64,000 nt of DNA from Clostridia bacterium. Its GTDB lineage: Bacteria > Bacillota > Clostridia > TANB77 > RGIG9151. The stretch is from positions 41,572-105,571 of the forward strand of contig JAFSUW010000029.1 in assembly GCA_017450465.1 (NCBI GenBank), in the 5' to 3' direction. The translations under genes were made by a program, and so were the position numbers. Below, in pieces: positions 12,262 to 60,876 of this stretch (position 1 is its first letter; every line of letters starts with the position of its first letter). The notes under the pieces are model-generated. The model saw only the letters and a list, made by a program, of their open reading frames with translations. It was not told the DNA's origin and did not search any database.

Positions 12262-13629
12262 TTATTCTTCTTCTACTTCGTCTTCATCTAATTTATCTGG
12301 TTTTTCTCCTGTATCGCAAATCTTTACCTTGGTTATACGCTTTTCCTCTATTTCTTCAACTTTAAATACCAAGCCGTTATACTCAAATTCTGGTCTTTCA
12401 TCATCTTCAGGGACAATTCCAAGATGTCCCATTATGAAGCCACCTAATGTATCATACTCATCTACAGGAAGTTCTCTATCAAATTTCTTAGAAACATCAA
12501 GTAAACTTACTGTTCCATCAACCATCTGTGTTGTTTCATCTATTTTTTCAAATTCTGATTTCTCTTCGCCATCATATTCATCAAAAATATTGCCTACTAT
12601 TTCTTCCATCAAATCTTCCATTGTAACAATACCACTTGTTCCACCATATTCATCAATTACAACAGCCATGTACATTTTGTTTTTTTGGAGTTCACGGAAT
12701 GTATCATCTGTTTTCTTCGACTCTGGCACATAATATATTTGACGAAGAATATCTGATATCTTAAATGTCTTCTTAGTCTTACCACTAATGTATTTTATTA
12801 CGTCTTTTACATGAACCATACCAATAATGTTATCGATATCTTCCTCATAAACAGGAAAACGAGTAAACTTTTCTTGCTCTACAAGTTCTAAAACATACTC
12901 TAAATCCGCATCTTTAGGAATTGCTACTATATCTTTTCTATGTGTCATTGCCTCTGATACAGATGTATTGTTAAAGTCAAAAACATTTTCTATCATTTCT
13001 TTTTCAGCAACTTCTATTGTTCCTTTTTCTTCTCCTATATCTACCATCATTCTAATTTCTTCTTCTGTAACTTCCTCAACAACTGCATTTGGATCTAATC
13101 CAAACATTTTTATAATAACATTTGTCGACCATGTTAAGAACATTACGAATGGTCTTGTAAGTTTTTCAACTAAATTTAACACACCAATAATAGCCATAGA
13201 AATTGGCTCTGGTTTTTGCATAGCAAATCTTTTTGGCACAAGTTCGCCAAAAACTAATGTAAAATATGACAAAACAATTGTAATTAATACTACTGCAATG
13301 CCATGTATTAAATCGGAATAAACTGCTAAACTCTCATTAATGCTAATAACCCAAGAAGTTATTGGCCCAGCAAAACCTGAAGCTGCTATAGCACTGGCCA
13401 AGAAACCTGCAAGTGTTACTCCAACTTGTATAGTTGCTAAGAATTTACTTGGCTCTTTCGTAAGTTTAACTATTTGTTTCGCTTTCTTATGGCCTTCTTC
13501 CGCCATTTTCTTTATTTTATTATCATTTAATGAAATTATTGCAATTTCTGCCGCAGCAAATAAAGCATTAATTGCTATAAGTATTATTAATAAGAAAAAC
13601 TTCAGCAACAAATGACTGCTATTCCCCAT
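12262..13629 (-). CDS. hemolysin-family CNNM/CorC transporter (DUF21-CBS-CorC_HlyC)
   Basis: N-terminal transmembrane DUF21, tandem CBS domains, C-terminal transporter-associated domain and an acidic tail. Confidence 0.8.
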   Translation of the reverse strand: MGNSSHLLLKFFLLIILIAINALFAAAEIAIISLNDNKIKKMAEEGHKKAKQIVKLTKEPSKFLATIQVGVTLAGFLASAIAASGFAGPITSWVISINESLAVYSDLIHGIAVVLITIVLSYFTLVFGELVPKRFAMQKPEPISMAIIGVLNLVEKLTRPFVMFLTWSTNVIIKMFGLDPNAVVEEVTEEEIRMMVDIGEEKGTIEVAEKEMIENVFDFNNTSVSEAMTHRKDIVAIPKDADLEYVLELVEQEKFTRFPVYEEDIDNIIGMVHVKDVIKYISGKTKKTFKISDILRQIYYVPESKKTDDTFRELQKNKMYMAVVIDEYGGTSGIVTMEDLMEEIVGNIFDEYDGEEKSEFEKIDETTQMVDGTVSLLDVSKKFDRELPVDEYDTLGGFIMGHLGIVPEDDERPEFEYNGLVFKVEEIEEKRITKVKICDTGEKPDKLDEDEVEEE

Positions 13630-13744
13630 TTATCTTCTGTGTCTCCTTTCAGACTGGTCTTTAGTTTAATATACAATAATATAGATGTAAAGTCAAATTA
13701 CGTTGAGTTTGTGAGATTTTGTGTTTTGGCTTAAGTTAAACTAC

Positions 13745-14134
13745 GCAAATTATTGTTTGTCTTTCTCTTTAATAACCACGTGAACTAACCATTACGTTTG
13801 TTAACATTTCTTGCCAAAATAATTGGTGGCCGTTCGCACGATGCATCCTGCATCGATTCTCACTCAAAAAAACATCCAGTTTTTTTGACCACCAAAAACT
13901 ATTTTGGAGAAATGTTACAAACTTCATTTAATCGTTCGCTATGGTTATTAAAGGGATTAAACTAAAATCATAATTTTATATATTTAAACTTTATGTTTGT
14001 CAAAGATTTGATGTTTTGGCAAGGCAAACGAGCGAGAAAACCGGAAGCGTACGAGTTGTACGTTGAGGATTTTCGATGCGAAGTTTAACGTAGCCAAAAC
14101 GCAAATATTTGACAAACTCAGTGATAAACAATAA
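13745..14134. repeat. MITE-like element with nested inverted repeats, bounded by AAATTATTGTTT / AAACAATAATTT
   Basis: Perfect 12-bp terminal inverted repeats. Internal ~70-bp arms (ctttaataaccac... / ...ggttattaaag) pair with each other. A central core is shared with 44950-45085. Confidence 0.55.
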
Positions 14135-14140
14135 TTTACT

Positions 14141-15040
14141 CTAATAGTTCTCTATCGTAGTTCCCCTATAATAATGTGCTAGTATTTCTTTATATGTTTT
14201 CCCTTCTCTTGCCATGGCTTCTGCGCCCCATTGGCTTAACCCTACACCATGACCATAACCTTTTACATTAATCTCTATATTAATATCGTCATTTTTTATA
14301 TTAAAATTACTAGAACGTAAATTAAAAATATTTCTTATCTTTGTACCCTTAAATTCGGTGTTTCCAATCTTTATTCTCCCTACACTTCCGCCTTCAGTCC
14401 TACTCAAAATTTTTATGTTGCCATCGTATGAAAAATTTTTATCCACTTTTTTTAAAGCATTCACAAATTCTTTTTTACTTATTACCACTTTAGTCTCATA
14501 ATTTTGCATTATTTCTTCGCCGGGGCTATCAACAGACGATAGATAAACTACATCACCACCTGCAAAAACTTCCGAAACGTTTTCAGTTTTCCCTCCACTT
14601 GCCGAATGATATAGCGCATTTATTATATTCCCCTCAAAAGTAAGGACTTCTCCTTTGGTTGATTCTACCGCTTCACTTATTTTCTTATAACTTGTAGAAT
14701 CATCCTTTTCACAAAATCCTTGGCAATGCGCCGGGTTATCACATATATCTGCATTTTTATGTGCATTTTGTCCAATTTTTCGATACGTATATGTACGTGC
14801 AGCAACTGTCTGCGCCTTTAATGCTTCAATATTAAAACTCGCTGGCATTTCTTTATATATTACTCCTTTTATATACTCTTCTAAATCCATCTCCTCCACT
14901 TTATCTTGAGCTGTTCTATATAAACGAATTTTAGCTATTTCTTCCTCATCATTTTTTATATCAATTCTAATATTAAAAATATAGCAAAAAATATATGGAA
15001 TTAAATTTAGTAAAAATATGTAATAAAAAAATTTTTTCAT
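14141..15040 (-). CDS. spoIID: stage II sporulation protein D
   Basis: SpoIID/LytB domain: YHSASGGKTENVSEVF...VGLSQWGAEAMAREGKTYKEILAHYY. Confidence 0.9.
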   Translation of the reverse strand: MKKFFYYIFLLNLIPYIFCYIFNIRIDIKNDEEEIAKIRLYRTAQDKVEEMDLEEYIKGVIYKEMPASFNIEALKAQTVAARTYTYRKIGQNAHKNADICDNPAHCQGFCEKDDSTSYKKISEAVESTKGEVLTFEGNIINALYHSASGGKTENVSEVFAGGDVVYLSSVDSPGEEIMQNYETKVVISKKEFVNALKKVDKNFSYDGNIKILSRTEGGSVGRIKIGNTEFKGTKIRNIFNLRSSNFNIKNDDINIEINVKGYGHGVGLSQWGAEAMAREGKTYKEILAHYYRGTTIENY

Positions 15041-16335: not shown

Positions 16336-16623
16336 TTATTTAAGTTCAATAACTAGCTTTTTCCCTAATGCCATGGCCATAGAGTTTAAGTCATAAATAG
16401 TTGGGCTTACATCTCCTGTCTCTATATCTAACACTGTTGTATCCTCTAAATTGGCCCTTTTAGTTAATTCTTCTTGTGTTATATTTTGTTTATTCCTTTC
16501 CTCTATAAAAAGGTTTATTATTTCTTTTTCATATTGTAGTTTATCCCACTCTTTTTTAAAACCTTCATCCTTTAATTTTTCATTTAAATGCTCATCAAAA
16601 TTCATAGTTTCCCTCCTTATCAT
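16336..16623 (-). CDS. XRE-family HTH antitoxin (HigA-like)
   Basis: 95 aa with an HTH (NITQEELTKRANL). A 4-nt ATGA overlap with the upstream toxin gene indicates translational coupling. Confidence 0.8.
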   Translation of the reverse strand: MIRRETMNFDEHLNEKLKDEGFKKEWDKLQYEKEIINLFIEERNKQNITQEELTKRANLEDTTVLDIETGDVSPTIYDLNSMAMALGKKLVIELK

Positions 16624-17183
16624 TTCTGAAATGATCCTCGTTTAGCCGAGCGCCGTTTTTTATCACTCTTATTTACTTGTGCTTTGGCAGCTTTTAATTC
16701 ACCTTCAACCTTTTTTAGTTCTTCTTTCAATTCACCAAACTCTTCTATTTCAGATTCGAGTTCGTCGTCCTCGTTATCATCAGCACCACTATCATCAATT
16801 TCAACATGTTTAAGAGGACCTAGTTTATTTTTTCTTTTTCTAGTCTCATAATCCGCTTTATATTTTTGTGCCTTACTAAATTCTCCTGGATCCATTTTTT
16901 CTTGCTTTTTTGTATAACCATTCGACAAAATTATAGTATTATCTCCTGCGAAAAAGTAAAATATCCTAAATATATCTGTCCCAAGTTTAACACGTAGCTC
17001 AAATATACCATCTCTAGCTGGGCTTGAATATGGATATCTCAAGTTGTTTCCTTGTTTATTTAACATTTTTAATCTATCCATTACTTTTGCTGCTTTTCTA
17101 TCAGATAATGTGGCTATATAATCTGCCACAGGCATTTTCCCACTGGATGTATGATAATAAACAAGTTCAAACAACTTTTTCAC
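16620..17183 (-). CDS. type II toxin, RelE/ParE superfamily, Gp49/HigB-like, with a ~70-aa C-terminal extension
   Basis: RYPYSSPARDGIFELRVKLGTDIFRIFYFFAGDNTIILSNGYTKKQEKMDPGEF matches the Gp49/DUF891 pattern. The acidic and Lys-rich tail is atypical. Confidence 0.75.
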   Translation of the reverse strand: MKKLFELVYYHTSSGKMPVADYIATLSDRKAAKVMDRLKMLNKQGNNLRYPYSSPARDGIFELRVKLGTDIFRIFYFFAGDNTIILSNGYTKKQEKMDPGEFSKAQKYKADYETRKRKNKLGPLKHVEIDDSGADDNEDDELESEIEEFGELKEELKKVEGELKAAKAQVNKSDKKRRSAKRGSFQK

Positions 17184-17201: not shown

Positions 17202-18797
17202 TTATTTTGCTGCTTCTTTATTTTCTACGCTTAATGATGCTGCTTTATTACCCCTTTTTAAGTCTTTATCAGTGCTAAACTCTTGCAAGATTTCATTTAC
17301 ATTTTTGCTAGCCATAGATGTTGTTGGATCTAAGTTATTTTCCCAAACTTTGCCGCCCCTTAAGCAATTTTTATTTATTTTACCATTCACATAAACAACA
17401 ACTTCATGCGTAGGATTATTGTTCGATGGGACCTTACTTAAATCCATACTCTCATAGCATAAACTTATACTGCTATTCGCATAAGATATCATATCATAGC
17501 CATATTGCTGATGAATTACCTCGTTTTGCTTCCCGCCCACATAAAACTTAGTGCTTGTGCTTGCTGGAATTCTTACCTCTTCCATAAGAGTATTTAAGAA
17601 AGCCGTAACATCTATTTCTACTATTTTCCCTATCAGTGGACGTCCATTTAATTTATCTATATGATTTGATATAAACGAAACTTTACGTAATGGGCAAAAT
17701 GAAAATACTTGCTGCCCTAAAGAAATATTATATAGTGTAGCTACTTGAAGACCACTTCCCAAAAATGCTCTATCACCAATCTTTAATGTTTTTTCAACTG
17801 AATCATAATTAAAGCTTTTTAAATTTTTTAATCCTAAACAAGCTTCAGTTCCAATCTCTTTTAATTCTACAGGAAAAATTATGTCTTCAACTTGTGCTGC
17901 CATTTTATATTGTTTTATAGAAAGTTCACCCGGTTTAATTTGTTCTACTTTTTTATTGTATATAACTGCCACTATAATTGCATTTTTATTGCCTATACCA
18001 TTAATAGCATTTACGAATTTTATTTTATATTTAGCATTATTCATAGTATATATTAAAGCCATCCTAGCAGAAGTTTTTAATATAGCTTTTTCATATCTCG
18101 TAGGCAATTTATACTTAACTAGTACGTCAATCACCCTTTTACGATATACGTCTAAATCACTTAATTCTGGTTCTTTTGGGCGTGCACTCTTTCCTCCCAC
18201 GCCACTTCTTATAAATCTACCTAAGAAATTCGTATCTTTTTTAACTTCTTTTTTTTCTTCTTTTTTATGTTCTTTTTCGTGCTTGGCTTCTTCTTTCTTT
18301 TCTAGTGCAGCATCTTCACCTAAATCTAAATTTTCGCCAAGTAAAATGTTCCACATTCTTCCTTGATGCAACACAGCATTTACATTCTTCATATCTACTT
18401 TGCCACTACCATATGCGCCTCTTTTTATTTCTGTTATTAGCATCTGCCTTTTCATATCTTGCTTTAAGTCAGATATTTTTAAGTTTTCTAGCATATCTAT
18501 TAATTCAGCAACTTGGTCGTCTGTTGTAAATTCTGGTATATCTACCTTCTTTAGTGTGCCCTTTTGCTTTATTTGTGAGGCAGTATATAACATTCTTATT
18601 CGCATAATTTGTCTAGAGACATCAATTAACTGCTCTTTATTAAACTGTTCTTCTAGCATATTATAATAATCCTGCACGATTTTTAAAAGTTCATCATCTA
18701 CAGAATCAATATCATATTCCATCGTATTAAGTCTAGTCTTAAATTCCTCAATTTCATTTGGCAATGCATCATTTATTGTATCTGCCATATATAACAC
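17202..18797 (-). CDS. hypothetical protein (531 aa; coiled-coil N-terminus, KE-rich linker)
   Basis: Long ORF separated from the toxin gene by only 18 nt, which suggests an operon. No recognisable motifs. Confidence 0.5.
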   Translation of the reverse strand: MLYMADTINDALPNEIEEFKTRLNTMEYDIDSVDDELLKIVQDYYNMLEEQFNKEQLIDVSRQIMRIRMLYTASQIKQKGTLKKVDIPEFTTDDQVAELIDMLENLKISDLKQDMKRQMLITEIKRGAYGSGKVDMKNVNAVLHQGRMWNILLGENLDLGEDAALEKKEEAKHEKEHKKEEKKEVKKDTNFLGRFIRSGVGGKSARPKEPELSDLDVYRKRVIDVLVKYKLPTRYEKAILKTSARMALIYTMNNAKYKIKFVNAINGIGNKNAIIVAVIYNKKVEQIKPGELSIKQYKMAAQVEDIIFPVELKEIGTEACLGLKNLKSFNYDSVEKTLKIGDRAFLGSGLQVATLYNISLGQQVFSFCPLRKVSFISNHIDKLNGRPLIGKIVEIDVTAFLNTLMEEVRIPASTSTKFYVGGKQNEVIHQQYGYDMISYANSSISLCYESMDLSKVPSNNNPTHEVVVYVNGKINKNCLRGGKVWENNLDPTTSMASKNVNEILQEFSTDKDLKRGNKAASLSVENKEAAK

Positions 18798-18837: not shown

Positions 18838-19014
18838 AGATAAATTATTGTTTATAGGGATGATGTAAATGTGTGTTGGTAAATTATCAAACTGTAGGGG
18901 CGAGTCTCCTGGCTCGCCCGTGTACAATGTTTGCGGGCGGGGGTGGAACCCCGCCCCTACAGAAATTTTAATATTTCATATTAAAATTTCTCCCCTACAA
19001 ACAATAATTTATCT
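18838..19014. mobile_element. MITE-like element (~177 bp) with 22-bp terminal inverted repeats
   Basis: AGATAAATTATTGTTTATAGGG ... CCCCTACAAACAATAATTTATCT. Inside are a CTGTAGGGGCG...CGCCCCTACAG double hairpin and an AT palindrome. Confidence 0.6.
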
Positions 19015-34610: not shown

Positions 34611-34627
34611 ATAACTCTTGCCTAAAT

Positions 34628-34656
34628 ATAATACAACAGATTTAAGCAAAAATCAA
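34628..34656 (-). promoter_or_regulatory. candidate sigma-A promoter for tRNA-Arg
   Basis: On the minus strand, TTGATT-17 nt-TATTAT, about 17 nt upstream of the mature tRNA 5' end. Confidence 0.4.
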
Positions 34657-34945
34657 GTACTTTTTAGTTTATTTGAGAAATTGTTGCTTAGTTGAGTAAT
34701 TTCGGCGAAAGAAGGGACGGGGGTAAATGACACAAACAGGTTCAGTTAGCCCCGTCCCACCTCCCGCATTTCCGCCTTTGGCGGATAATGCGAGTGGCGA
34801 ACACACCTCGGAAATCACTCGCCATAAGTTCGAATAGCAAAATCAAAGATTTTGATTCTCACTTATGTTCGCCGCTACAAGTTTGCGAATAACTCTAACT
34901 TTAAATTCTCTCATGTAAACAATAATTTATCTTTCCTCCTATTAT

Positions 34946-35525: not shown

Positions 35526-37412
35526 TTAATCTGTAAGACTTCCAAATAATTCATCAAATTTCGCTTCAAGTTGCTTTTGAATATCTAAGTCTTCTAAATC
35601 ATCCTTTTCAAGACCGTTTTCAACATTTACCGAACCAACTGTTCCTTTGCCTATTTCATAAGGATTAATTATCCTAAATTCTTTTCTATGATTTAAGCTT
35701 GGGTCATTATGGCTCATTTTATACATTTGACGCTCTTTGTCTTTTGGATGCATACTTACATCGTATTTTTTAGCTTTTATAGGACGCATACCTTTAACCA
35801 TTACGATACTCGTATCAAGTGGCAAACGTTTTAACTCATCAATTGTCATAAGTACTCTTCCCATTGACTGATCAGATATGCTCTGTGACATTTGTCCTGA
35901 ACTGGTTCCAAATATACCGCCTAACTGGCCACTTACTGAATTTTGTTTCTTGGTTATTGTTGCCTCTCCTAAGCTTTTTGATATATACTCACAAGTTTTT
36001 ACTGCTTGGCTACCCAAAAATAGATGCGTATCGCAGTTTGCCATGATGTTTTCGTAAATATCTTTATACATATCCATTAATTGGTCAATACTCTGTAAAA
36101 CTATGCTAATGTTTATATTTCTACTTCTACTTGTACTTAATTTTTGGTTAAAATCAGGAATTTGTCCTGTATTTGCGAACTCATCTAGGAGGAAGAATAC
36201 TGGTATATCAAGCCGTCCTCCATTTTGGTCTGCCATGAAATATAATCTTTGAAGCACCTGCCCAAAAAACATGGTAGGCAAGAAGTTAAATGCACTATGG
36301 CTATCTGGGGTTATAACGAATGTTGCCATTTTCTTTTGCCCCATAGCATCTATATCTATTGAACTACTACCTGTTATAGCAGATATTTCCGGTGTATCAA
36401 AAACGTTTAGCCTTGTAGCAAGTCCTACTAAAACTCCGGCCCTTGTCTTATCTACAGCTAATCTAAACGTTTCATAACTCTTTCTTGCCATACATTCGAA
36501 AGGAAGACGCATAAAGATGTCATCCATCCAGTCAAAATCCTGTCCTGCTCTTACCATAGCAAGGCAGCTTGCAAGCGATTGTTCTTCCTTTGGTGCTTCT
36601 TGTAATAAATAATATATACATGAGTTAAGTAAAGCACGCTCTGCTTGTGGCCAGAATGGGTCTTCGTTTGTTGAACCCTTACTTGTATTTTTTATTAATG
36701 CATCACTTACGATATCTACATCGAGAGTTCCACCAATATGATGTAGAGGGTTATATGAATCACTACAGCTTGGATTTACTAAGTTTATGCAACGAACTTC
36801 ATAGCCATTTTCTTTTAAGAAACCTGCTGCAGTATCAAAGTTTTCACCTTTTGGGTCGGTTACGATATATGAGCCAAGCATTTGAAGCATATTAGGCATA
36901 ATGTAACCTCTTGATTTCCTAGAACCAGCACCACCTATGATTAATACATTTTTATTTATAAATTTATTATCTACTGTTAAATAATTTTTTTGTGCAAGTA
37001 TTATACCTGTATTTGGATTTAATATTTCGTATTGGTCACCATTTGCCCATCCGCTTGAACCATGTTCAATATTTTCATACTCGCCGGTAAAGAACCTAAG
37101 TTTTATTTCATAAGCACCAAAAATAATTAAACAAAAAATTGTAATTGGTGTTACACTACTTAAAAAACCGTGTTGAGCATCTGAGTTATTAATATATTTA
37201 GTAAACGTAAGAGGATTTAAGTTTTTAAAAAAATTAGGCGCAAAAAGAACAGCATCTACAGACGAAATGCTGCTATCTTTTTCTTTTTTATACTGTTCCC
37301 ATTGTGCTTTGGTGGCACCATAAGCACCACCTAAGAACGTTAGGAGTAATAAAAAAACTATTCCATAAAATATATATCTTTGTTTTCTTTTTTTAAGAAT
37401 ATTTAATCCCAT
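35526..37412 (-). CDS. TraG/VirD4-family type IV secretion coupling protein homolog with a degenerate Walker A
   Basis: N-terminal transmembrane segments. GGAGSRKSRGYIMPNML lines up with the VirD4 Walker A/PNLL region but lacks the canonical GxxxxGK[ST]. The FFLLDEFANTGQIP Walker B region is typical of TraG/VirD4. Confidence 0.7.
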   Translation of the reverse strand: MGLNILKKRKQRYIFYGIVFLLLLTFLGGAYGATKAQWEQYKKEKDSSISSVDAVLFAPNFFKNLNPLTFTKYINNSDAQHGFLSSVTPITIFCLIIFGAYEIKLRFFTGEYENIEHGSSGWANGDQYEILNPNTGIILAQKNYLTVDNKFINKNVLIIGGAGSRKSRGYIMPNMLQMLGSYIVTDPKGENFDTAAGFLKENGYEVRCINLVNPSCSDSYNPLHHIGGTLDVDIVSDALIKNTSKGSTNEDPFWPQAERALLNSCIYYLLQEAPKEEQSLASCLAMVRAGQDFDWMDDIFMRLPFECMARKSYETFRLAVDKTRAGVLVGLATRLNVFDTPEISAITGSSSIDIDAMGQKKMATFVITPDSHSAFNFLPTMFFGQVLQRLYFMADQNGGRLDIPVFFLLDEFANTGQIPDFNQKLSTSRSRNINISIVLQSIDQLMDMYKDIYENIMANCDTHLFLGSQAVKTCEYISKSLGEATITKKQNSVSGQLGGIFGTSSGQMSQSISDQSMGRVLMTIDELKRLPLDTSIVMVKGMRPIKAKKYDVSMHPKDKERQMYKMSHNDPSLNHRKEFRIINPYEIGKGTVGSVNVENGLEKDDLEDLDIQKQLEAKFDELFGSLTD

Positions 37413-44808: not shown

Positions 44809-44887
44809 AATTTTTTCCTCCATTTTCTGCTATAATATTACCATTATTTTGACCATTTTACAACACGTGTGATATAATTAAATAAAC

Positions 44888-45189
44888 AAATTATTGTTTT
44901 TAGAGTTACAAATAATAAAAAACAAATCGCTTCATTCTAACACTTCGTTTGTTGCATTTTATACCAAAACAAATGATGGTCGTTCGTATTCGGCATCCAT
45001 ACCTCATACTCACTCAAAAAAACATCCGGTTTTTTTGACCATCATAAGCCGTTTTGGAAAAATGCTAACAAACTACGTGATGAATTCGCTTTATTTGTTT
45101 TTTATTATTAAATTGTAACTACGCAAGATTACTAAATGTAGAGTTTGATTATGGCAAGCCATAATCAAACTCCCCAACAAACAATAATT
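44888..45189. mobile_element. MITE-like element bounded by AAATTATTGTTT / AAACAATAATTT, with a core shared with 13813-13930
   Basis: Perfect 12-bp terminal inverted repeats. Internal arms gtttgttgcatttt...tgatggtcgttcg and cgaattcatc...gtttgttagcatttt are inverted copies. Contains the core ctcactcaaaaaaacatccggtttttttgacca. Confidence 0.55.
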
Positions 45190-45210
45190 TATCTTAATAG
45201 GAGAAACAAA

Positions 45211-51384: not shown

Positions 51385-51417
51385 AAAGAGGCGGAAGTTT
51401 TTCTTCCGCCTCTTTTA
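51385..51417. terminator. terminator downstream of flagellin 51424..52584
   Basis: aaaagaggcggaagtttttcttccgcctctttt. Confidence 0.7.
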
Positions 51418-51423
51418 TTTTTA

Positions 51424-52584
51424 TTATAGTCCTTGTAATAATTGTAATACTTGATTTGGTTGTTGATTTGCTTGTGCAAGCATTGCTGTAGCTGTTTGGT
51501 TAAGTATACTATCTTTTGTATATGTAACCATTTCAGCTGCCATATCAACATCACGAATACGTGATTCAGCAGCTGTTAAGTTTTCTTCACTCGCAGCTAA
51601 GGCATCTAAGGTATATTCCAACCTGTTCTGATAAGCACCAAGATCGCCTCTTGCGCTTGTTAATATATTTAACGCATTATCTATTGCATCTAGAGTATCA
51701 CATGCTTGATCTACGTCATCTATACTTAAATATGTAAGTCCAAGTGCAGCTGAACGCAAGTCTGGCATTTCTATTGTAAGAGCTCTATCTATTGAATTTG
51801 CACCAATTTGAAGGTTTGTCTTTCCTCCAGGTGATGTTTGTATCTTAAGTCCACTAATACTTGCAAGTGTCATATCCTTAAAGTTAAACTTAATACCAAC
51901 ATTTGAGCCATCTGCACCTTCAAACCTCATAAATCCAGAATATTTTGCATCTGTAATTGGGCCTGTTGTACTTGTTGCTGTATGTGTAGCTCCTTGTATT
52001 GAATAAGTAACTGTTACAACACCATCGCTATCTACACTAAAAGTATATTCTGTTTCATTCTCTGCGCCTGCAACATCTAATGTTTTTATTCCTTCAATTA
52101 AATCATATCCACCATCGGCATTTGCTTGATAAACAGTTGAATTAGCCTTGTCAGCTGACATTCCAAGTGTACCTTTTAATAAGTACGTACCATTAAATGA
52201 AGCTGTTTCTGCTATTCTATCAACCTCATCCCTAAGTTGTACTATCTCGGCTGTTATTGCTTCTTTTTCACCTGTTGATAGTATACCATTCATAGATTGA
52301 ACTGAAAGTTCTCTCATTCTTTGGAAAATATCACTAACTTGTTGTAATGCACCTTCTGCTGTTTGAATCATTGATATACCATCTTGTGCATTAAGCTGGG
52401 CCTTTTCCAAACCTCTTATCTGTGCTCTCATCTTTTCACTAATAGCAAGACCTGCAGCATCATCGCCTGCACTGTTAATTCTTAAGCCTGATGATAATTT
52501 CTCAAGTGAGCTTACTGTTCCTCTCTGGTTTACTACCAATTGATTTTGGGCATTAATTGCCGAAATGTTGTGATTAATCCTCAT
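51424..52584 (-). CDS. flagellin (386 aa, divergent paralog)
   Basis: MRINHNISAINAQNQL N-terminus and ...QPNQVLQLLQGL C-terminus. Confidence 0.95.
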   Translation of the reverse strand: MRINHNISAINAQNQLVVNQRGTVSSLEKLSSGLRINSAGDDAAGLAISEKMRAQIRGLEKAQLNAQDGISMIQTAEGALQQVSDIFQRMRELSVQSMNGILSTGEKEAITAEIVQLRDEVDRIAETASFNGTYLLKGTLGMSADKANSTVYQANADGGYDLIEGIKTLDVAGAENETEYTFSVDSDGVVTVTYSIQGATHTATSTTGPITDAKYSGFMRFEGADGSNVGIKFNFKDMTLASISGLKIQTSPGGKTNLQIGANSIDRALTIEMPDLRSAALGLTYLSIDDVDQACDTLDAIDNALNILTSARGDLGAYQNRLEYTLDALAASEENLTAAESRIRDVDMAAEMVTYTKDSILNQTATAMLAQANQQPNQVLQLLQGL

Positions 52585-52678
52585 GATTAATTCCTCCTTA
52601 TTTTTCTACCGTCTTGTCATTCCATGATCTTAAAGCTTTAAACATCCATAATAATGTCTTAAATCCTTTTCAAAAACA

Positions 52679-52705
52679 TTATCGTATTTTAGCGAAAATA
52701 CTTTA
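52679..52705 (-). promoter_or_regulatory. candidate sigma-D promoter for flagellin 51424..52584
   Basis: On the minus strand, TAAA-N15-TACGATAA. Confidence 0.4.
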
Positions 52706-52838
52706 TAGTTTTTTTAAACTTTTTTTGGTTTTTTAAAAAAAATATAGTGCATTTCCGCATAAACAGGGGGTTTTAATATTATTAATTTTTTTATTAAAAT
52801 ATTAACCCGCCTGTTTATACTTAAAAAGCACCATATAA

Positions 52839-53948
52839 TTATTGCAATAATGATAAAATTGTTTGAGGCTGCTGATTTGCTTGAGCAAGCATTGCCATAG
52901 CTGATTGGTTAAGTATACTATTCTTTGTATACGATACCATCTCACTAGCCATGTCTACATCACGAATACGTGATTCTGCATTGGTCAAGTTTTCATGTGT
53001 AGCCGTCAAGTTCTCAACTGCATACTCCATTCGATTCTGCATTGCTCCTAATACGGAACGTTGGGCCGATACTTTATCTATTGCATAATCGATTGCAATT
53101 AGAGTATTGTTGGCTTCTTCATTAGTTGCAATTGAAATAGTCATCTTTTCTGAGTTTGCTGATAAACCTGTAGAGCTCATATCATCAATACCAATAAATA
53201 ATAAATCTTCTTCATAAGTATTGGCACCAATTTTGAATACTGCTCTTTTGCCATCATCAGATTCAGTTTGTGTTGTAATAGTTGCGCCATTTAATTCTGA
53301 TGCAGCAATTGGAGTTTTACCAAGATTTATTTCAATTCCTGCGGATGCAAATCTGACAACTCCGCTTATTGTCTGACCTATAGTAAGTTCTTCTTTACCA
53401 TCTGTTCCCCAGGTGATTTTTGCCTTACCATCTGTCACCTCTATCGAATACGTTGTACCTTCTTCGGCATTTGATACACTAACTGAATACTTCTCATCTA
53501 CTGTGGTTGAATCCAGTTGTGTTGCAAGAGAACCATCTAGTATTTTCTTTGAGTTAAACGTACTAGATGTTGCAATTCTGTCTATCTCATCTCGAAGTGT
53601 TGCAAGTTCTGTCGAAACAGAAACTCGATCATCTTCTGTTAATACACCTGTATTTTGTGATTTAACTACTAGTTCTCTCATTCTCTGCAATATATCAGTA
53701 GTTTGTTGAAGAGCACCTTCTGCCGTTTGTATCATTGAGATACCATCTTGGGCATTGTTTTTAGCTTGTGCTAAACCTCTAATTTGTGCTCTCATCTTTT
53801 CACTGATTGCAAGTCCCGATGCGTCATCTGCCGCACTGTTAATTCTTAAACCTGACGATAGTTTCTTTATAGAACCCTCAACTCTTGATTGGTTCCCTGA
53901 TAATTTGTTTTGGGCATTAATAGCCATTATATTTGTATTTATTCTCAT
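52839..53948 (-). CDS. flagellin (369 aa)
   Basis: MRINTNIMAINAQNKL...[16 protein letters not shown]. Confidence 0.95.
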   Translation of the reverse strand: MRINTNIMAINAQNKLSGNQSRVEGSIKKLSSGLRINSAADDASGLAISEKMRAQIRGLAQAKNNAQDGISMIQTAEGALQQTTDILQRMRELVVKSQNTGVLTEDDRVSVSTELATLRDEIDRIATSSTFNSKKILDGSLATQLDSTTVDEKYSVSVSNAEEGTTYSIEVTDGKAKITWGTDGKEELTIGQTISGVVRFASAGIEINLGKTPIAASELNGATITTQTESDDGKRAVFKIGANTYEEDLLFIGIDDMSSTGLSANSEKMTISIATNEEANNTLIAIDYAIDKVSAQRSVLGAMQNRMEYAVENLTATHENLTNAESRIRDVDMASEMVSYTKNSILNQSAMAMLAQANQQPQTILSLLQ

Positions 53949-54115
53949 TTTACATTCCTCCTTGAATTTTTAAGAAAACCCTTCCGTGGGCTTCCTAGAG
54001 AGCTTTTTACCTCGGCCCTGAGTTTAACTCTCTAAAACCTTCATCGTCATTTTTTTTCATTACTTAACATTTATTTAAAAAATTTTTTAGAGAACAAGTT
54101 TATATTTAAAAATAA

Positions 54116-54143
54116 AAAGGAGGCCTAAGCCTCCTTTTTATTT
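54116..54143. terminator. terminator downstream of flagellin 54148..55254
   Basis: aaaaaggaggcctaagcctccttttt. Confidence 0.65.
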
Positions 54144-54147
54144 TTTA

Positions 54148-55254
54148 TTAACCAAGTAATGATAAGATTTGTTGTGGTTGTTGATTTGCTTGTGCAAGCA
54201 TTGCCATAGCTGATTGATTTAAGATGCTATTCTTTGTGTAAGTTACCATTTCAGCAGCCATGTCTACATCACGGATACGTGATTCAGCAGCTGTTAAGTT
54301 TTCACTTGTTGTTGATAAGTTTTCTACTGCGTATTCCATTCTGTTTTGAACAGCACCTAAACTTGCTCTTTGGCTTGATACTTTGTTGATTGCATTATCA
54401 AGATTTTTTAATGCTGCATCTGCATTTGCTGTTGTACTTATATCAATAGTTACACCTAATGCTGCTGATCTCATATCACCAATACCAACAAATAATTGGT
54501 CTTCGTCATATGTGTTAGCACCAATTTTAAATGCAGCTTTTTCTTTTCCACCTGCAGCAGATGCTGCTTTTGTTACTATATTTTTGCCGTTTATTGATGT
54601 TGCTGCAACATCAGTTGTACCAACATCAATTTCTATTCCAGCATTTGCAAATTTAATTACACCATTTATTGTTTGTGGTACAGCAACTTCTTCTGTTTTT
54701 GCAGTACCATCAGTCCAACTAAGCGTAATCTTACTTGATGTAGCTGCTATAGAATATGTAATTCCTTCTTTTGCGTTTGCTACATTTACTTTGCAATTAC
54801 TGCCAAGTGTTGTAGTGTTTAATTGTGTACCCATATCACCATTTAATAATTTCTTTGTATTAAATGTTGTTGAGTTTGCAATTCTATCTACTTCATCTTT
54901 TAATGCTGTTAATTCTGTTGTGATTGATGTTTGGTCATTTGATGTTAAAACACCAGTGTTTTGTGCCTTTACAACTAGTTCTCTCATTCTTTGAAGTATA
55001 TCTGTTGTTTGTTGTAATGCACCTTCTGCTGTTTGTAACATAGAAATACCATCTTGAGCATTACTTTGTGCTTGATTTAAGCCACGAATCTGTGATCTCA
55101 TCTTTTCACTTATAGCAAGGCCAGATGCATCATCTGCAGCTCCGTTAATTCTTAAACCTGATGATAATTTTTTGATTGATCCTTCTACTTTACCTTGATT
55201 ACCTGTTAATTTGTTTTGGGCATTTAATGCCATAATATTGGTATTAATTCTCAT
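54148..55254 (-). CDS. flagellin (368 aa)
   Basis: Conserved flagellin N- and C-termini. Confidence 0.95.
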   Translation of the reverse strand: MRINTNIMALNAQNKLTGNQGKVEGSIKKLSSGLRINGAADDASGLAISEKMRSQIRGLNQAQSNAQDGISMLQTAEGALQQTTDILQRMRELVVKAQNTGVLTSNDQTSITTELTALKDEVDRIANSTTFNTKKLLNGDMGTQLNTTTLGSNCKVNVANAKEGITYSIAATSSKITLSWTDGTAKTEEVAVPQTINGVIKFANAGIEIDVGTTDVAATSINGKNIVTKAASAAGGKEKAAFKIGANTYDEDQLFVGIGDMRSAALGVTIDISTTANADAALKNLDNAINKVSSQRASLGAVQNRMEYAVENLSTTSENLTAAESRIRDVDMAAEMVTYTKNSILNQSAMAMLAQANQQPQQILSLLG

Positions 55255-55311
55255 AATAATTCCTCCTTGAATTTATTAATTTCTTAACCTCCATGTAACC
55301 TTATCTCTTAA

Positions 55312-56136
55312 TTAGCTTAAGAGTGATAAAATTTGTTGTGGTTGTTGATTAGCTTGTGCAAGCATTGCCATAGCTGATTGATTTAAGATACTATTCTTTG
55401 TGTAGTTAACCATTTCAGCAGCCATATCTACGTCACGAATACGTGATTCAGCAGCTGTTAGGTTTTCCTTAGTTGTTGATAAGTTCTCAATTGCATATTC
55501 CATTCTATTTTGTACAGCACCAAGACTTGCTCTTTGGCTTGAAACTGTATTTATGGCAGTATCAATATTGGTTAAAGCAGCATTTGTGTTTGTTGCATTA
55601 CTAATATTGATTGTTACGCCTAAATCAGATGATTTCATAGAAGCAATATTTACTGTAATTGAGTCAACTGTATCTGTATTTGCACCTATTTTAAATGTTG
55701 CACCATTTGTTGCTAAACTACCATCTAACAATTTTTTGGTATTAAAAGTTGTTGAATTAGCGATTCTATCAATTTCACTGTTTAGTGCTGTTAATTCTGT
55801 CGTTATTGATGTTTTATCGTTATCTGTTAAAACACCAGAGTTTTGTGCTTTTACAACTAGTTCTCTCATTCTTTGAAGAATGTCTGTTGTTTGTTGTAAT
55901 GCACCTTCTGCTGTTTGGATCATTGATATACCATCTTGGGCATTGCTTTGTGCTTGACCAAGACCACGAATCTGTGCTCTCATCTTTTCACTTATAGCAA
56001 GACCAGATGCATCGTCAGATGCACTGTTAATTCTTAAACCAGATGATAATTTCTTAATTGATCCTTCAACTTTACCTTGGTTACCGGTTAATTTGTTTTG
56101 AGCATTTAATGCCATAATATTGGTATTTATTCTCAT
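55312..56136 (-). CDS. flagellin (274 aa)
   Basis: Conserved flagellin N- and C-termini with a short central domain. Confidence 0.95.
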   Translation of the reverse strand: MRINTNIMALNAQNKLTGNQGKVEGSIKKLSSGLRINSASDDASGLAISEKMRAQIRGLGQAQSNAQDGISMIQTAEGALQQTTDILQRMRELVVKAQNSGVLTDNDKTSITTELTALNSEIDRIANSTTFNTKKLLDGSLATNGATFKIGANTDTVDSITVNIASMKSSDLGVTINISNATNTNAALTNIDTAINTVSSQRASLGAVQNRMEYAIENLSTTKENLTAAESRIRDVDMAAEMVNYTKNSILNQSAMAMLAQANQQPQQILSLLS

Positions 56137-56198
56137 TTTACATTCCTCCTTGAACTATAAACATCTTCCCTGACTTATTAAAGTCATGAGCCTATATT

Positions 56199-57023
56199 CT
56201 AACCTAATAGTGAAAGTATTTGTTCAGGTTGTTTATTTGATTGTGCAAGCATTGCCATAGCAGTTTGATTTAATATACTATTCTTTGTATAGTTAACCAT
56301 TTCAGCAGCCATATCTACGTCACGAATACGTGATTCAGCAGCTGTTAAGTTTTCTTGTGTTGTAGATATGTTTTCAATAGCATATTCCATCCTGTTTTGG
56401 ACAGCACCAAGATTTGCTCTTTGGCTTGAAACTGTATTAATAGCAGCATCAAGTTTTGTTAGAGCTTCATTAGTCTTAGCGGCAGTCGAAATATCAGTAG
56501 ATATATTAAGTGCTGATGAAGTCATCGCATTAATATTTACTGTTATTGAATCAACCGCATCTGTGTTTGCACCAATTTTAAATGTTGCACCAGTACTTGC
56601 TAAATCACCGTTTAGCAACTTTTTGGTGTTAAATGTTGTTGAATTAGCGATTCTATCAACTTCACTGTTTAGAGCTGTAAGCTCTGTAGTGATTGATGTT
56701 TTATCGCTATCCGTAAGAACACCTGAATTTTGTGCTTTAACTACTAGTTCTCTCATCCTTTGTAAAATATCAGTCGTTTGCTGAAGTGCACCCTCTGCTG
56801 TTTGAATCATTGATATACCATCTTGGGCATTACTTCCAGCTTGGGCAAGTCCTCTAATCTGAGCTCTCATCTTTTCACTTATAGCAAGACCAGATGCATC
56901 ATCAGATGCAGTATTGATCCTTAAGCCAGATGATAATTTCTTGATAGAAGACTCAACGTGACCATTATTTTTACTAAGCATATTCCTAGCATTTAAGGCC
57001 ATAACATTGGTATTAATCCTCAT
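56199..57023 (-). CDS. flagellin (274 aa from MRINTN)
   Basis: Start moved two codons in, to MRINTNVMALNARNML, which has an RBS. Confidence 0.9.
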   Translation of the reverse strand: MRINTNVMALNARNMLSKNNGHVESSIKKLSSGLRINTASDDASGLAISEKMRAQIRGLAQAGSNAQDGISMIQTAEGALQQTTDILQRMRELVVKAQNSGVLTDSDKTSITTELTALNSEVDRIANSTTFNTKKLLNGDLASTGATFKIGANTDAVDSITVNINAMTSSALNISTDISTAAKTNEALTKLDAAINTVSSQRANLGAVQNRMEYAIENISTTQENLTAAESRIRDVDMAAEMVNYTKNSILNQTAMAMLAQSNKQPEQILSLLG

Positions 57024-57064
57024 ATACATTCACCCTCTTCCTTGAAGGATTATGTATGAGGCTC

Positions 57065-57112
57065 AATATTCTTTTGGTTTAATTTTTAATGTGGCTCACA
57101 ATATTGAGCCCC
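57065..57112. terminator. hairpin terminator between flagellin genes
   Basis: gaggctcaatattc...gaatattgagcc inverted repeat. Confidence 0.5.
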
Positions 57113-57126
57113 ATACGACCTACTTA

Positions 57127-57960
57127 TTACCTAAGTAATGATAAAATTGCTTGTGGTTGTTGATTAGCTTGTGCAAGCATTGCCATAGCTGATTGATTTA
57201 AGATACTATTCTTTGTGTAACTTACCATTTCGCTAGCCATATCTACATCACGAATACGTGATTCAGCAGCTGTTAAGTTTTCACTTGTTGTTGATAAGTT
57301 TTCTACTGCATATTCCATTCTGTTTTGAACAGCACCAAGTTTTGCTCTTTGACTTGAAACTGTATTAATAGCAGCATCAAGTTTTGTTAAAGCTGTGCTT
57401 GCTCCACCAGCTGTTGTAATATCTAACGCATTAATTTGAAGACTTGTTGCATCCATAGCACCTATTGTAACTTTAATTGAGTCAACTGCGTCTGTGTTTG
57501 CACCAATTTTAAATACTGCTGCATCAGCAGCGTCTTCTAAGTCACCATTTAATAATTTCTTGGTGTTAAATGTTGTTGAAGAAGCAATTCTATCAACTTC
57601 ATTTTTTAATGCTGTTAACTCTGTTGTAATAGATGATTGGTCTTGGCTTGTTAACACACCAGTATTTTGTGCTTTTACAACTAGTTCTCTCATTCTTTGA
57701 AGAATGTCTGTTGTTTGTTGTAATGCACCTTCTGCTGTTTGAATCATTGATATACCATCTTGAGCATTACTTTGTGCTTGATTTAAGCCACGGATCTGTG
57801 ATCTCATCTTTTCACTTATAGCGAGGCCTGATGCATCATCAGCAGCTCCATTAATTCTTAAACCTGATGATAATTTCTTGATTGATCCTTCAACTTTACC
57901 TTGGTTACCTGTTAACTTATTTTGGGCATTTAATGCCATAATGTTTGTATTAATTCTCAT
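57127..57960 (-). CDS. flagellin (277 aa)
   Basis: Conserved flagellin termini. Confidence 0.95.
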   Translation of the reverse strand: MRINTNIMALNAQNKLTGNQGKVEGSIKKLSSGLRINGAADDASGLAISEKMRSQIRGLNQAQSNAQDGISMIQTAEGALQQTTDILQRMRELVVKAQNTGVLTSQDQSSITTELTALKNEVDRIASSTTFNTKKLLNGDLEDAADAAVFKIGANTDAVDSIKVTIGAMDATSLQINALDITTAGGASTALTKLDAAINTVSSQRAKLGAVQNRMEYAVENLSTTSENLTAAESRIRDVDMASEMVSYTKNSILNQSAMAMLAQANQQPQAILSLLR

Positions 57961-58016
57961 AATAATTCCTCCTTGAATTTTTTTTAATAATTTTTCTTCC
58001 TTGATCTAACAAATTA

Positions 58017-58457
58017 CTATTCTAGCAATTTTAGTATCTGTTCGGGTTTTTTATTTGCTTGGGCTAATATCGCACTCTTTGAATGGTTAATCATACGACT
58101 CTTGGTCTCATTTACCACTTCTTCAGCCATATTAACATCACGAATACGAGATTTAGATGCATTGATGTTTTCAGCAACAATATCATCTTCTCCTTTTATA
58201 GCTACTTCCTTAGATTCGAATAAACCTTCCATATCAGCTAATACTTCATTAGCTTTTGAGTATACTACTTCTGGTTCTTGGCGTTTATCGATTTCCCTCA
58301 TTTGTTCATGCATTTTCTCGTTAACACGAGGATCTACATTTTTCTTGTTTTCGCTTATTTTAAGTCCAGAATTTCTCTCTTCACGAGATTCATCTGGTTT
58401 TCTTGACGCTATGTTTTGAAGACTAAGCGCAGCTACATTATCTATTCTCATATTCAA
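58017..58457 (-). CDS. mini-flagellin-like protein (146 aa; flagellin D0 N- and C-terminal segments only, charged linker)
   Basis: MNMRIDNVAALSLQNIA... at the N-terminus and ...SRIRDVNMAEEVVNETKSRMINHSKSAILAQANKKPEQILKLLE at the C-terminus. Confidence 0.7.
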   Translation of the reverse strand: MNMRIDNVAALSLQNIASRKPDESREERNSGLKISENKKNVDPRVNEKMHEQMREIDKRQEPEVVYSKANEVLADMEGLFESKEVAIKGEDDIVAENINASKSRIRDVNMAEEVVNETKSRMINHSKSAILAQANKKPEQILKLLE

Positions 58458-58504
58458 TCCCCTCCTCCCTGAAACAATAAATTCCTTTTATTTTTTTTAC
58501 TCAT

Positions 58505-58530
58505 GTAGTAGGCGAGTAAATCGCCCCTAC
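58505..58530. repeat. GC-rich hairpin (GTAGTAGGCG...CGCCCCTACA family)
   Basis: gtagtaggcgagtaaatcgcccctacaa. Confidence 0.5.
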
Positions 58531-58532
58531 AA

Positions 58533-59357
58533 TTAGCTTAAGAGTGATAAAATTTGTTGTGGTTGTTGATTAGCTTGAGCAAGCATTGCCATAGCTGATT
58601 GATTTAAGATGCTATTCTTTGTGTATGTAACCATCTCAGCAGCCATATCTACGTCACGAATACGTGATTCAGCAGCTGTTAAGTTTTCACTTGTTGTTGA
58701 TAAGTTCTCGATAGCATATTCCATTCTGTTTTGTACTGCACCAAGTTTTGCTCTTTGACTTGATACTGTATTGATTGCTGTGTCAAGGTTTGTTAAAGCA
58801 TCATCTGCAGCTGTCTTTATATTGATTGTAATACCTAAAGCAGCAGATCTCATGTCACCAATTGTGATTGAGATTGAGTCAACTGCGTCTGTATTAGCAC
58901 CAATTTTAAATGTTGCTGCATTTGCTGCTAACTTCAAATCACCATTTAATAGTTTCTTTGTGTTGAATGTTGTAGAACTTGCGATTCTATCAACTTCATC
59001 TTTTAATGCTGTTAATTCTGTTACTATTGAGTCTTGGTCATTTGTTGTTAAAACACCAGTATTTTGTGCTTTTACAACTAGTTCTCTCATTCTTTGAAGA
59101 ATGTCTGTTGTTTGTTGTAATGCACCTTCTGCTGTTTGGATCATTGATATACCATCTTGAGCATTACTTTGTGCTTGGTTAAGTCCACGAATCTGTGATC
59201 TCATCTTTTCGCTTATAGCGAGGCCTGATGCATCGTCAGAAGCTCCGTTAATTCTTAAACCTGATGATAATTTCTTGATTGATCCTTCTACTTTACCTTG
59301 ATTACCTGTTAATTTGTTTTGGGCATTTAATGCCATAATGTTTGTGTTAATTCTCAT
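58533..59357 (-). CDS. flagellin (274 aa)
   Basis: Conserved flagellin termini. Confidence 0.95.
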   Translation of the reverse strand: MRINTNIMALNAQNKLTGNQGKVEGSIKKLSSGLRINGASDDASGLAISEKMRSQIRGLNQAQSNAQDGISMIQTAEGALQQTTDILQRMRELVVKAQNTGVLTTNDQDSIVTELTALKDEVDRIASSTTFNTKKLLNGDLKLAANAATFKIGANTDAVDSISITIGDMRSAALGITINIKTAADDALTNLDTAINTVSSQRAKLGAVQNRMEYAIENLSTTSENLTAAESRIRDVDMAAEMVTYTKNSILNQSAMAMLAQANQQPQQILSLLS

Positions 59358-59751
59358 AATTATTCCTCCTTGAATATTTTTTTCTTCTTATAATAAGAAG
59401 AGTTCCTTAAGAAGATAAATCCTTTTACCTTCTCTTTACTAATTTACTTAGTACCATCCTCCTTTAGGTGAATGATTTTCTTCCGTGAATTTAGGTGTCA
59501 TTAAAATATTTTTGACTTATTATGTCCCGACCAATTCTTTTGGAAGTGACTAATCTACTTCGCCGTATCATAAATTAATCATTTATGTAATTTTTACAAC
59601 GCTAAAGTTAAAGCCGTATAACCTTATTATTGTAAAAAAATTACCAAAACTTTTTAAACCTTAAATAGAACAGTAAATTTAGTTTGTAGTTCTAGATATT
59701 AGTTATAAGAGTAGCCCCCTCACTAATATCTAGAAATACATTTACTGCTTA

Positions 59752-60576
59752 CTATCTAAGTAATGACAAAATTTGTTGTGGTTGTTGATTAGCTTGTGCT
59801 AACATTGCCATAGCTGATTGATTTAATATGCTATTCTTTGTGTAACTTACCATCTCAGCAGCCATATCTACGTCACGAATACGTGATTCAGCAGCTGTTA
59901 AGTTTTCACTTGTTGTTGATAAGTTTTCAATTGCATATTCCATTCTATTTTGTACTGCACCAAGTTTAGCTCTTTGGCTTGATACTGTGTTTATTGCATT
60001 ATCTAAGTTTGTTAAAGCTGTACTTGCTGCACTTGCAGTTGTAATATCAGTTGTTACTCCTAAAGCTGTTGATGTCATTGTACCTATTGTTACTGTTATT
60101 GAGTCAACTGTATCTGTATTTGCACCAATCTTAAATGTTGCACCATTTGTTTTTAAATCACCATTTAATAATTTCTTTGTATTAAAGGTTGTTGAAGAAG
60201 CAATTCTATCAACTTCATCTTTTAATGCTGTTAACTCAGTTGTGATTGATGATTGGTCTTGTGCTGTTAAAACACCAGTATTTTGTGCTTTTACAACTAG
60301 TTCTCTCATTCTTTGAAGAATGTCAGTTGTTTGTTGTAATGCACCTTCTGCTGTTTGTATCATTGAGATACCATCTTGTGCGTTACTTTGTGCTTGGTTA
60401 AGTCCACGAATCTGTGATCTCATCTTTTCACTGATTGCAAGGCCTGATGCATCATCAGCAGCTCCATTAATTCTTAAACCTGATGATAATTTTTTGATTG
60501 ATCCTTCAACTTTTCCTTGGTTTCCTGTTAATTTGTTTTGTGCGTTTAATGCCATAATGTTTGTGTTAATTCTCAT
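59752..60576 (-). CDS. flagellin (274 aa)
   Basis: Conserved flagellin termini. Confidence 0.95.
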   Translation of the reverse strand: MRINTNIMALNAQNKLTGNQGKVEGSIKKLSSGLRINGAADDASGLAISEKMRSQIRGLNQAQSNAQDGISMIQTAEGALQQTTDILQRMRELVVKAQNTGVLTAQDQSSITTELTALKDEVDRIASSTTFNTKKLLNGDLKTNGATFKIGANTDTVDSITVTIGTMTSTALGVTTDITTASAASTALTNLDNAINTVSSQRAKLGAVQNRMEYAIENLSTTSENLTAAESRIRDVDMAAEMVSYTKNSILNQSAMAMLAQANQQPQQILSLLR

Positions 60577-60626
60577 AATACATTCCTCCTTGAATTTTTT
60601 TGTATAAAGTAAATCCCTTTACTTTT

Positions 60627-60762: not shown

Positions 60763-60794
60763 TTAAATTCAACAAATAAATCTCTTAAATTTTT

Positions 60795-60829: not shown

Positions 60830-60876
60830 AACGGCTATTTCAATTACTTTTTGTGGGTAAAGAAATCCCTACATTA

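Follow-up and report, generated by a model that had tools for sequence, protein, structure and literature searches.

The window, meaning the whole 64,000-nucleotide stretch that was analyzed, is AT-rich (32% G+C) and holds a repeat-filled intergenic block between two genes on the minus strand. Domain annotation assigned the upstream gene to SpoIID (14141–15040, stop codon at 14141–14143) and the downstream gene to a CNNM transporter (CNNM/CBS/CorC_HlyC, 12262–13629), in agreement with the names that both had received in a first-pass annotation of this DNA. Read along the strand of the two genes, the spoIID stop codon is followed by AAATTATTGTTT, a 126-nt palindrome, a 193-nt hairpin, AAACAATAATTT, an extra unit of ~50 nt and the CNNM promoter (TTGACT-17-TATATT, 13668–13696, minus strand; 10/12 in the promoter scan). 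This promoter (13696→13668) lies outside the repeats and downstream of the whole block, whose lower boundary it forms, and a terminator scan found no terminator between spoIID and it. The locus was also present in several gut-type metagenome assemblies from ENA and Logan. Elsewhere in the window, a Gp49/HTH_3 (HigB/HigA-like) toxin–antitoxin pair and a leucine-rich-repeat protein gene (16336–17183 and 17202–18797) are inserted between rplL and spoIID, an interval that in the relatives carries an EPSP-synthase-family (PF00275) gene in their place. At least nine tandem paralogous flagellin genes (51400–64000; 274–277 aa, Flagellin_N/C) form an unusually large array downstream of fliD.

The first-pass annotation had described the block as at least three nested layers of inverted repeats, namely units of about 40 bp in both orientations near both edges, inner arms of about 70 bp around a central A7/T7 hairpin and terminal inverted repeats around the whole. 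All three layers were recovered with a repeat finder and blastn and exceed chance. The edge repeats are three units of ~50 nt: unit 1 (13700–13750, plus strand; core GTTTGTGAGATTTTGTGTTTTGGC..GTTAAACTACGCA), unit 2 (13988–14038, plus strand) and unit 3 (14074–14124, minus strand). Unit 1, which nhmmer also recovered, is the inverted partner of 14077–14120; the arms 13704–13747 and 14077–14120 of units 1 and 3 are 73% complementary without gaps and 84% complementary over 45 nt with one gap (blastn, E = 1e-6). The resemblance between units 1 and 2 is weak (blastn, E = 0.05–0.4; 53% ungapped). Units 2 and 3 are the arms of the 126-nt palindrome (13995–14120, plus strand; self-complementarity E = 7e-9), in which 13995–14029 pairs with 14083–14117 around a small central hairpin. 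The palindrome folds better on the plus strand (−51.4 kcal/mol, z = −6.9) than on the minus strand (−40.5 kcal/mol, z = −6.0). No copy of the ~50-nt unit was found by nhmmer beyond the block in ~270 kb of sequence, and Rfam at permissive thresholds gave no match for the palindrome or the units.

The terminal repeats consist of a left copy, AAATTATTGTTTGTC (13747–13761), and a right copy, GATAAACAATAATTT (14123–14137), which lies 3 nt from the spoIID stop codon; the pair (I4) spans 15 nt with 93% complementarity and includes the exact 12-mer AAATTATTGTTT at 13747–13758 (plus strand) and 14126–14137 (minus strand). The inverted pair is real, but it does not enclose the whole block, as unit 1 falls outside it. 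The pairing of units 1 and 3 and that of the 12-mers are therefore interleaved, and the layers, real in themselves, are not nested at the outside.

The inner arms proved longer than first described and belong to a long imperfect hairpin of 193 nt (13764–13956, minus strand), which folds into an extended P1 stem and a head of two small hairpins. Its folding energy as RNA was −71.8 kcal/mol compared to −38 in shuffled sequences (z = −8.3), and as DNA it reached z = −9.1. Head hairpin 1, the A7/T7 hairpin (UCAAAAAAAC-UGGAU-GUUUUUUUGA; 13864–13888, minus strand; pair I16), has 10-nt arms with 100% complementarity. Beside it, and likewise enclosed by the 193-nt hairpin, the fold and the Rfam alignment placed head hairpin 2 (CGAUGCA-GGA-UGCAUCG; 13839–13855, minus strand), which was missing from the first-pass annotation and whose loop reads AGGAU if the stem is taken as 6 bp. 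Minimum-energy and centroid folds both gave a long P1 stem that closes two neighboring terminal hairpins. A 52-aa small-protein ORF at 13769–13927 (minus strand) was rejected because the second copy of the hairpin, described below, lacks its ATG and has an in-frame TAG.

The core at 13789–13929 (minus strand) matched the Rfam family TwoAYGGAY (RF01731) across the full model (positions 1–168) with 44.3 bits (E = 2e-5), a narrow margin over the gathering score of 43; a scan of the whole window with default filters listed neither copy, whereas scans of short regions listed both. With our own covariance model (R1), the core of copy 1 scored 142.7 bits. In an alignment of seven sequences, the consensus fold showed compensatory changes in 20 of its 40 pairs, and 89.9% of cells were paired, compared to 77% in column shuffles and 41–53% when partners were slid. 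The sense strand folded at least as well as the antisense strand in 6/6 TwoAYGGAY hairpins tested, and the GGAU loop motif lies on the same strand in all copies. The loops of copy 1 are CUGGAU and A-GGAU (one base missing), in which the GGAU core alone is kept and neither is a strict AYGGAY; those of copy 2 are CCGGAU and the canonical AUGGAU, and those of a metagenomic copy from another species (L022; 50 bits with Rfam) are CUGGAU and AUGGAC.

TwoAYGGAY was described as two terminal loops with AYGGAY and a closing stem that is often very long, and was rated by its authors as probably an RNA and not cis-regulatory, with no function assigned since 2010 (Weinberg et al. 2010, PMC2864571). In Rfam, the family has the type 'Cis-reg', and the original family alignment contains many copies with shared flanks from one Psychromonas genome. 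Judged by its sequence and predicted fold, the core of the inner hairpin is a further member of this known, functionally orphan family. The likeness extends to the long P1 stem closing two adjacent GGAY-loop hairpins, the occurrence in Clostridia and gut-type metagenomes, the lack of a fixed neighbor gene and the presence of several copies per genome. In contrast to the family as described, the motif here lies inside a larger palindrome with genome-specific terminal repeats and with an extra neighboring hairpin; such embedding in end-bracketed mosaics was not found in the family description (PMC2864571), although mosaics of this general type are familiar.

A second element with the same architecture lies at 44886–45192 (minus strand), with 12-mers at 44888–44899 and 45179–45190, a 38-nt hairpin at 45138–45175 and a long hairpin at 44903–45122 that contains a TwoAYGGAY core (45080→44940, minus strand; 48.4 bits with Rfam). 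The whole element folds with −111.8 kcal/mol (z = −11.8), and its core is 78% identical to that of copy 1 over 141 nt (blastn). The stem of head hairpin 1 is identical in copy 1, copy 2, L022 and a Marinitoga sequence (L008), while that of head hairpin 2 is wholly different in copy 2 yet still paired. On the minus strand, both copies run from AAATTATTGTTT through a hairpin starting with GAGTTTG and the long TwoAYGGAY hairpin to AAACAATAATTTG; the GAGTTTG hairpin is the 126-nt palindrome in copy 1 and, at the equivalent position, the 38-nt hairpin in copy 2. This shared architecture indicates that the block is one element of ~390 bp (13747–14137) plus one solo ~50-nt unit outside it. The L022 sequence has no such extra hairpin, and its long hairpin terminates in the same CAAATTA/TAATTTG, which suggests that the 12-mers form the outer edge of the element and are not a separate feature. 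Full copies of the element number two in 64 kb, and blastn of both against plasmids and phages gave no match.

The exact 12-mer occurs seven times in the window compared to 0.17 expected, a count reached in 0 of 100 shuffles, and has the extended consensus AGATAAATTATTGTTTRT; it was absent from ~140 kb of related species. Convergent pairs of it occur at four sites, three in the window and one in L023, and enclose different hairpins in segments of 146–391 bp. The third window site (18838–19014, minus strand; repeat AGATAAATTATTGTTTRTAGGG, 12-mers at 18842 and 19010) is 177 nt long with a 23-bp closing stem (z = −11.3); inside it are an AT-rich hairpin and a pair of inverted, GC-rich hairpins with GTAG tags, resembling a REPIN. 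It is directly upstream of a BspA-type leucine-rich-repeat surface-protein gene that the relatives are without here, and the rplL terminator lies on its other side. Within the 8 kb to the left of the window, a fifth 12-mer site was found, where the convergent pair (L023 13877–14022) begins on the stop codon of lon and has a further GTAG-tagged hairpin inside it. A single copy of the motif, AGATAAATTATTGTTT (34915–34930, minus strand; 12-mer at 34928), stands 5′ of a ~300-nt GC-rich structured stretch upstream of a tRNA-Arg gene. A rhodanese gene and tRNA-Arg(tct) flank that stretch (34620–34930, minus strand; z = −6.8), and a type IV secretion coupling protein gene (35526–37412) is located just upstream of it. 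Rfam gave no match for the hairpin clusters at 18.8 kb or 34.7 kb. Behind the spoIID stop codon, the 5′ 12-mer starts after 3 nt; at two other sites, it starts 0 and 15 nt after a stop codon. On inspection, the 12-mer was rejected as a sigma-70 promoter, a Fur/PerR-type box and an integron attC core, with no consistent −35 or fit to a consensus.

Comparison of the same locus in related genomes, which the first-pass annotation had proposed, showed that the two closest relatives keep the gene order and are without the block. The order spoIID-CNNM-rluB-dsbH is retained in both L010 (CNNM 81% identical) and L025 (CNNM 80% identical), with spoIID-CNNM spacers of 88 bp and 100 bp, respectively. Both share 13630–13697 alone with the window, which therefore has ~440 bp more (13700–14140), located upstream of the CNNM promoter. 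Across L010, L011, L025 and L026, conservation in this spacer is confined to 13630–13697, that is, to the CNNM promoter and leader. In L011 (72%), the same spacer carries a TwoAYGGAY hairpin of a different subtype, in the opposite orientation to the genes and with different flanking inverted repeats; in L026 (74%), it carries a heptamer bracket and a small hairpin without the TwoAYGGAY core. At the site of copy 2, the yhbY-rluA spacer of L018 (RluA 78%) is ~120 bp long and element-free, compared to 387 bp in the window. The TwoAYGGAY copies of L011 scored 53.6 bits and 42.7 bits, the latter just below the cut-off of 43, and a partial duplicate was also present.

Arrays of the heptamer GAATA(A/G)T with up to 14 units were observed in L011 (2373–2393, 9860–9908, 13770–13783, 14103–14130 and 17268–17365) and L026 (2930–2950). 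In this lineage, GAATART arrays form inverted brackets around TwoAYGGAY hairpins and other modules and are the counterpart of the 12-mer in the window. The occurrence of these brackets with and without the core indicates that mosaics of lineage-specific modules are a general property of the intergenic DNA of the clade. The ~50-nt units were also considered as relics of TwoAYGGAY stem arms, as they have TTTGGCTAC and GTTAAAC in common with the L011 arms; blastn and nhmmer did not support this reading, which stands as a weak lead.

Within the species, the block is fixed and has a single orientation in all spanning assemblies (four independent ones, covering the whole or most of it). Compared to the window, L001 and L006 differ by eight substitutions clustered at 13813–13858, in or beside head hairpin 2, and are identical in the rest of the 570-bp region; this cluster looks like gene conversion or exchange from another copy. 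A pattern scan with hairpin 1 gave two matches among genome representatives, the Marinitoga relative and a Victivallales MAG whose hairpin is probably a chance one, a single match among JGI metagenomes (L022) and none among viral contigs. The Marinitoga lauensis (Thermotogota) sequence, L008 5590–5741, lies between convergent genes and has an identical CAAAAAAAC-NGGAU-GUUUUUUUG head and GAACGACC junction. The Rfam model did not call this hairpin at E ≤ 1, and its likeness rests on comparison by eye and on our own model, which was trained with it; at this level, the copy hints at transfer across phyla.

The copies have no fixed relation to transcription. Copy 1 is co-oriented with spoIID, whereas copy 2 lies in a 5′ leader, antisense to a strong plus-strand promoter on the rluA side (TTGACC-18-TATAAT, 11/12) that reads into it; one L011 copy (L011a) is antisense to its flanking genes, and the L008 copy is convergently flanked. 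The genes that TwoAYGGAY copies adjoin are unrelated, and a scan for sigma-70-like promoters and intrinsic terminators found no such pair framing either window copy. Elements were placed directly behind stop codons or between convergent genes.

BOX elements of Streptococcus pneumoniae and Correia elements of Neisseria are modular intergenic repeats with mutually complementary terminal modules and a variable interior. Once transcribed, both fold into long hairpins; those of Correia are RNase III substrates, and Correia ends are defined terminal repeats of 26 bp with a TA target duplication. The elements described here likewise have mutually complementary terminal modules that enclose a variable interior, but they have no sequence similarity to BOX or Correia, and the 26-bp terminal repeats and TA duplication of Correia were not found.

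REP, BIME and REPIN sequences are short extragenic palindromes that often follow a stop codon closely or lie between convergent genes; either orientation occurs, modules are joined in mosaics, co-transcription is the usual case and presence differs from one relative to another (Bertels & Rainey 2011, PMC3116915; Di Nocera 2013, PMC3733652; Quentin 2018, PMC6006769). By rule, a REP is a short hairpin, GC-rich at its base, with a GTAG or GTGG tag 0–2 nt to its 5′ side (PMC6006769). The TwoAYGGAY hairpin and the 126-nt palindrome depart from this rule in their AT-rich bases, and there is no consistent GTAG, as the 5′ foot is GAAG in copy 1 and GTAG in copy 2. The TwoAYGGAY hairpin is also 5–10 times longer than a REP, with a branched head. 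Separate small hairpins elsewhere in the genome do follow the REP rule, and two of them lie inside one 12-mer pair.

Such GTAG-tagged REP-like hairpins (GGGCG...CGCCC) were observed in the window at 5904(−), 9701(+), 18894(+), 18960(−), 44520(−), 58530(−) and 62894(+) and, outside the window and in relatives, at L010 2938, L017 9867/9882, L023 13946 and L026 1957/3196/5356. Their GC-based stem directly follows the tag, and they lie mostly just after genes and are conserved across several species of the clade. The main text of the survey of GTAG-tagged REPs makes no mention of Clostridia or Firmicutes. Canonical GTAG-tagged REP-like hairpins elsewhere are tied to Y1 (RAYT) transposases. By this analogy, mobilization by a Y1 enzyme may be conjectured; no transposase, Y1/RAYT gene or recombinase was found by Pfam annotation and gene tables in the window or the fetched relatives (~72 kb of this genome).

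The traits of the element match REP/BIME/REPIN, BOX and Correia sequences; they suit a stand-alone small-RNA gene less well and are not those of a cis-regulator. We therefore read the block as accessory repeat DNA, since the hairpins are multi-copy, have no fixed orientation, are framed by no promoter and terminator, adjoin unrelated genes and are embedded in mosaics. The closest relatives do without the block, which likewise speaks for repeat DNA that is accessory and probably mobile, and against a regulator of the neighboring genes. Our preferred explanation, held with slightly better than even confidence, is that non-autonomous palindromic repeat modules make up the block, a mosaic present in this lineage and absent at this site from its two closest relatives, and that the modules would have spread as selfish DNA. 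The first-pass annotation had suggested successive insertions of small palindromic elements or a structured RNA locus, and each half of this suggestion receives part of the support: the RF01731 score and the compensatory changes speak for the RNA, and the presence/absence difference and the recurrence of modules for the elements. Both the inner element and the 12-mer repeats recur elsewhere, and the block is an insertion or deletion difference from the two closest relatives, whose gene order is the same.

In the mechanism that we propose for the repeat mosaic, the modules would spread as selfish DNA, most likely through a single-stranded hairpin intermediate recognized by a trans-acting protein, much as has been proposed for the movement of REP/REPIN and BIME elements; recombination between copies would be an alternative route. 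Two identical loops suggest a dimeric binder. The element would be carried passively in the 3′ untranslated or intercistronic RNA of spoIID, where its long double-stranded stems could act as an exonuclease barrier or an RNase III target and would exert no control over CNNM. A MITE, a non-autonomous element of the DDE type, would have terminal inverted repeats at its exact ends and a direct target-site duplication. Inverted ends of 12–23 nt are present at the four bracketed sites, none of which has flanking direct repeats. Because the intergenic DNA of the relatives is too diverged, neither a target-site duplication nor a clean junction of an empty site could be defined; a possible ATAATT duplication at copy 2 rests on one diverged empty site. 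Counting against the repeat-mosaic explanation, the contents between 12-mer pairs vary by site, which is unusual for a recently amplified family. The count of just two full copies in 64 kb, the confinement of the ~50-nt unit to this block, the lack of a transposase, Y1/RAYT or recombinase gene in the sequence covered and the fixed, single orientation of the block within the species also count against it.

An alternative that we consider possible, if somewhat improbable, is that the inner hairpins are true small-RNA genes, in which a trans-acting or protein-sequestering TwoAYGGAY RNA would bind a dimeric protein through its GGAY loops and the small-RNA locus would have been duplicated. The gathering score reached in Rfam, the covariation supporting the fold and the family authors' rating all speak for an RNA. 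The conservation of the GGAU loop on one strand would fit an RNA or a single-stranded DNA intermediate equally, and together with the 6/6 preference or parity of sense-strand folding it would be equally expected of a functional RNA. Standing against small-RNA genes, however, are the missing promoter and terminator frame around both copies and the most plausible transcription of copy 2, which would be antisense from the rluA side. The nearest relatives are without the element, and the hairpins sit inside larger palindromes whose genome-specific ends also enclose unrelated hairpins.

It is clearly unlikely, in our estimate, that the block is a domesticated intercistronic RNA element comparable to E. 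coli REP sequences, with stems that would serve as RNase III cleavage sites or as obstacles to 3′ exonucleases and so uncouple the expression of spoIID from that of CNNM. The very stable stems, the lack of a terminator before the CNNM promoter and the start of the 5′ 12-mer just behind stop codons at spoIID and two other sites would suit this role, but the nearest relatives manage without the block and its sister copy has the opposite polarity in a 5′ leader.

We regard as very unlikely an inverton family, in which one master recombinase would flip the 12-mer-flanked segments and the shared inverted repeat would be its recognition sequence. The repeat does flank segments of 146–391 bp at at least four intergenic sites, always convergently, and one of these is directly upstream of the BspA-type gene. 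The enclosed DNA is nearly palindromic, however, and its inversion would change little; because, in addition, no promoter was found inside the segments, no recombinase gene was found in the window and the four independent assemblies of the species have a single orientation, an inverton is improbable. The same end sequence in L022 is no more than a continuation of the hairpin stem. A cis-regulatory leader or riboswitch of the CNNM/CorC-type Mg/Co transporter gene is hardly tenable despite the position of the block upstream of CNNM on the same strand and the Rfam type 'Cis-reg', since the conserved promoter lies downstream of the whole block, the closest relatives (orthologues 80–81% identical) keep promoter and leader without it, other copies adjoin unrelated genes and no riboswitch family matched in Rfam.

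Beyond the reading of the block as a selfish repeat mosaic, we tentatively put forward a bolder proposal, which we hold to be rather doubtful: rather than being primarily an RNA gene, TwoAYGGAY may be the cis-acting hairpin of a mobile DNA element with the ends CAAATTATTGTTT/AAACAATAATTTG, mobilized as a single strand by a protein that binds the two GGAY loops. If this is true, the same ends would also carry other hairpin cargo, including REP-like doublets, and would define a new class of mosaic carrier element ranging from Clostridia to Thermotogota.

In annotating this genome, neither a regulator of the Mg/Co transporter gene nor a small-protein gene should be assigned to the block. For the TwoAYGGAY family, the sequences described here add a presence/absence difference between close relatives with identical gene order, occurrence in either orientation to transcription, a position inside palindromes whose genome-specific ends also enclose unrelated hairpins, and gene-conversion-like variation between strains. 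Together, these four observations favor a selfish repeat over a regulator.
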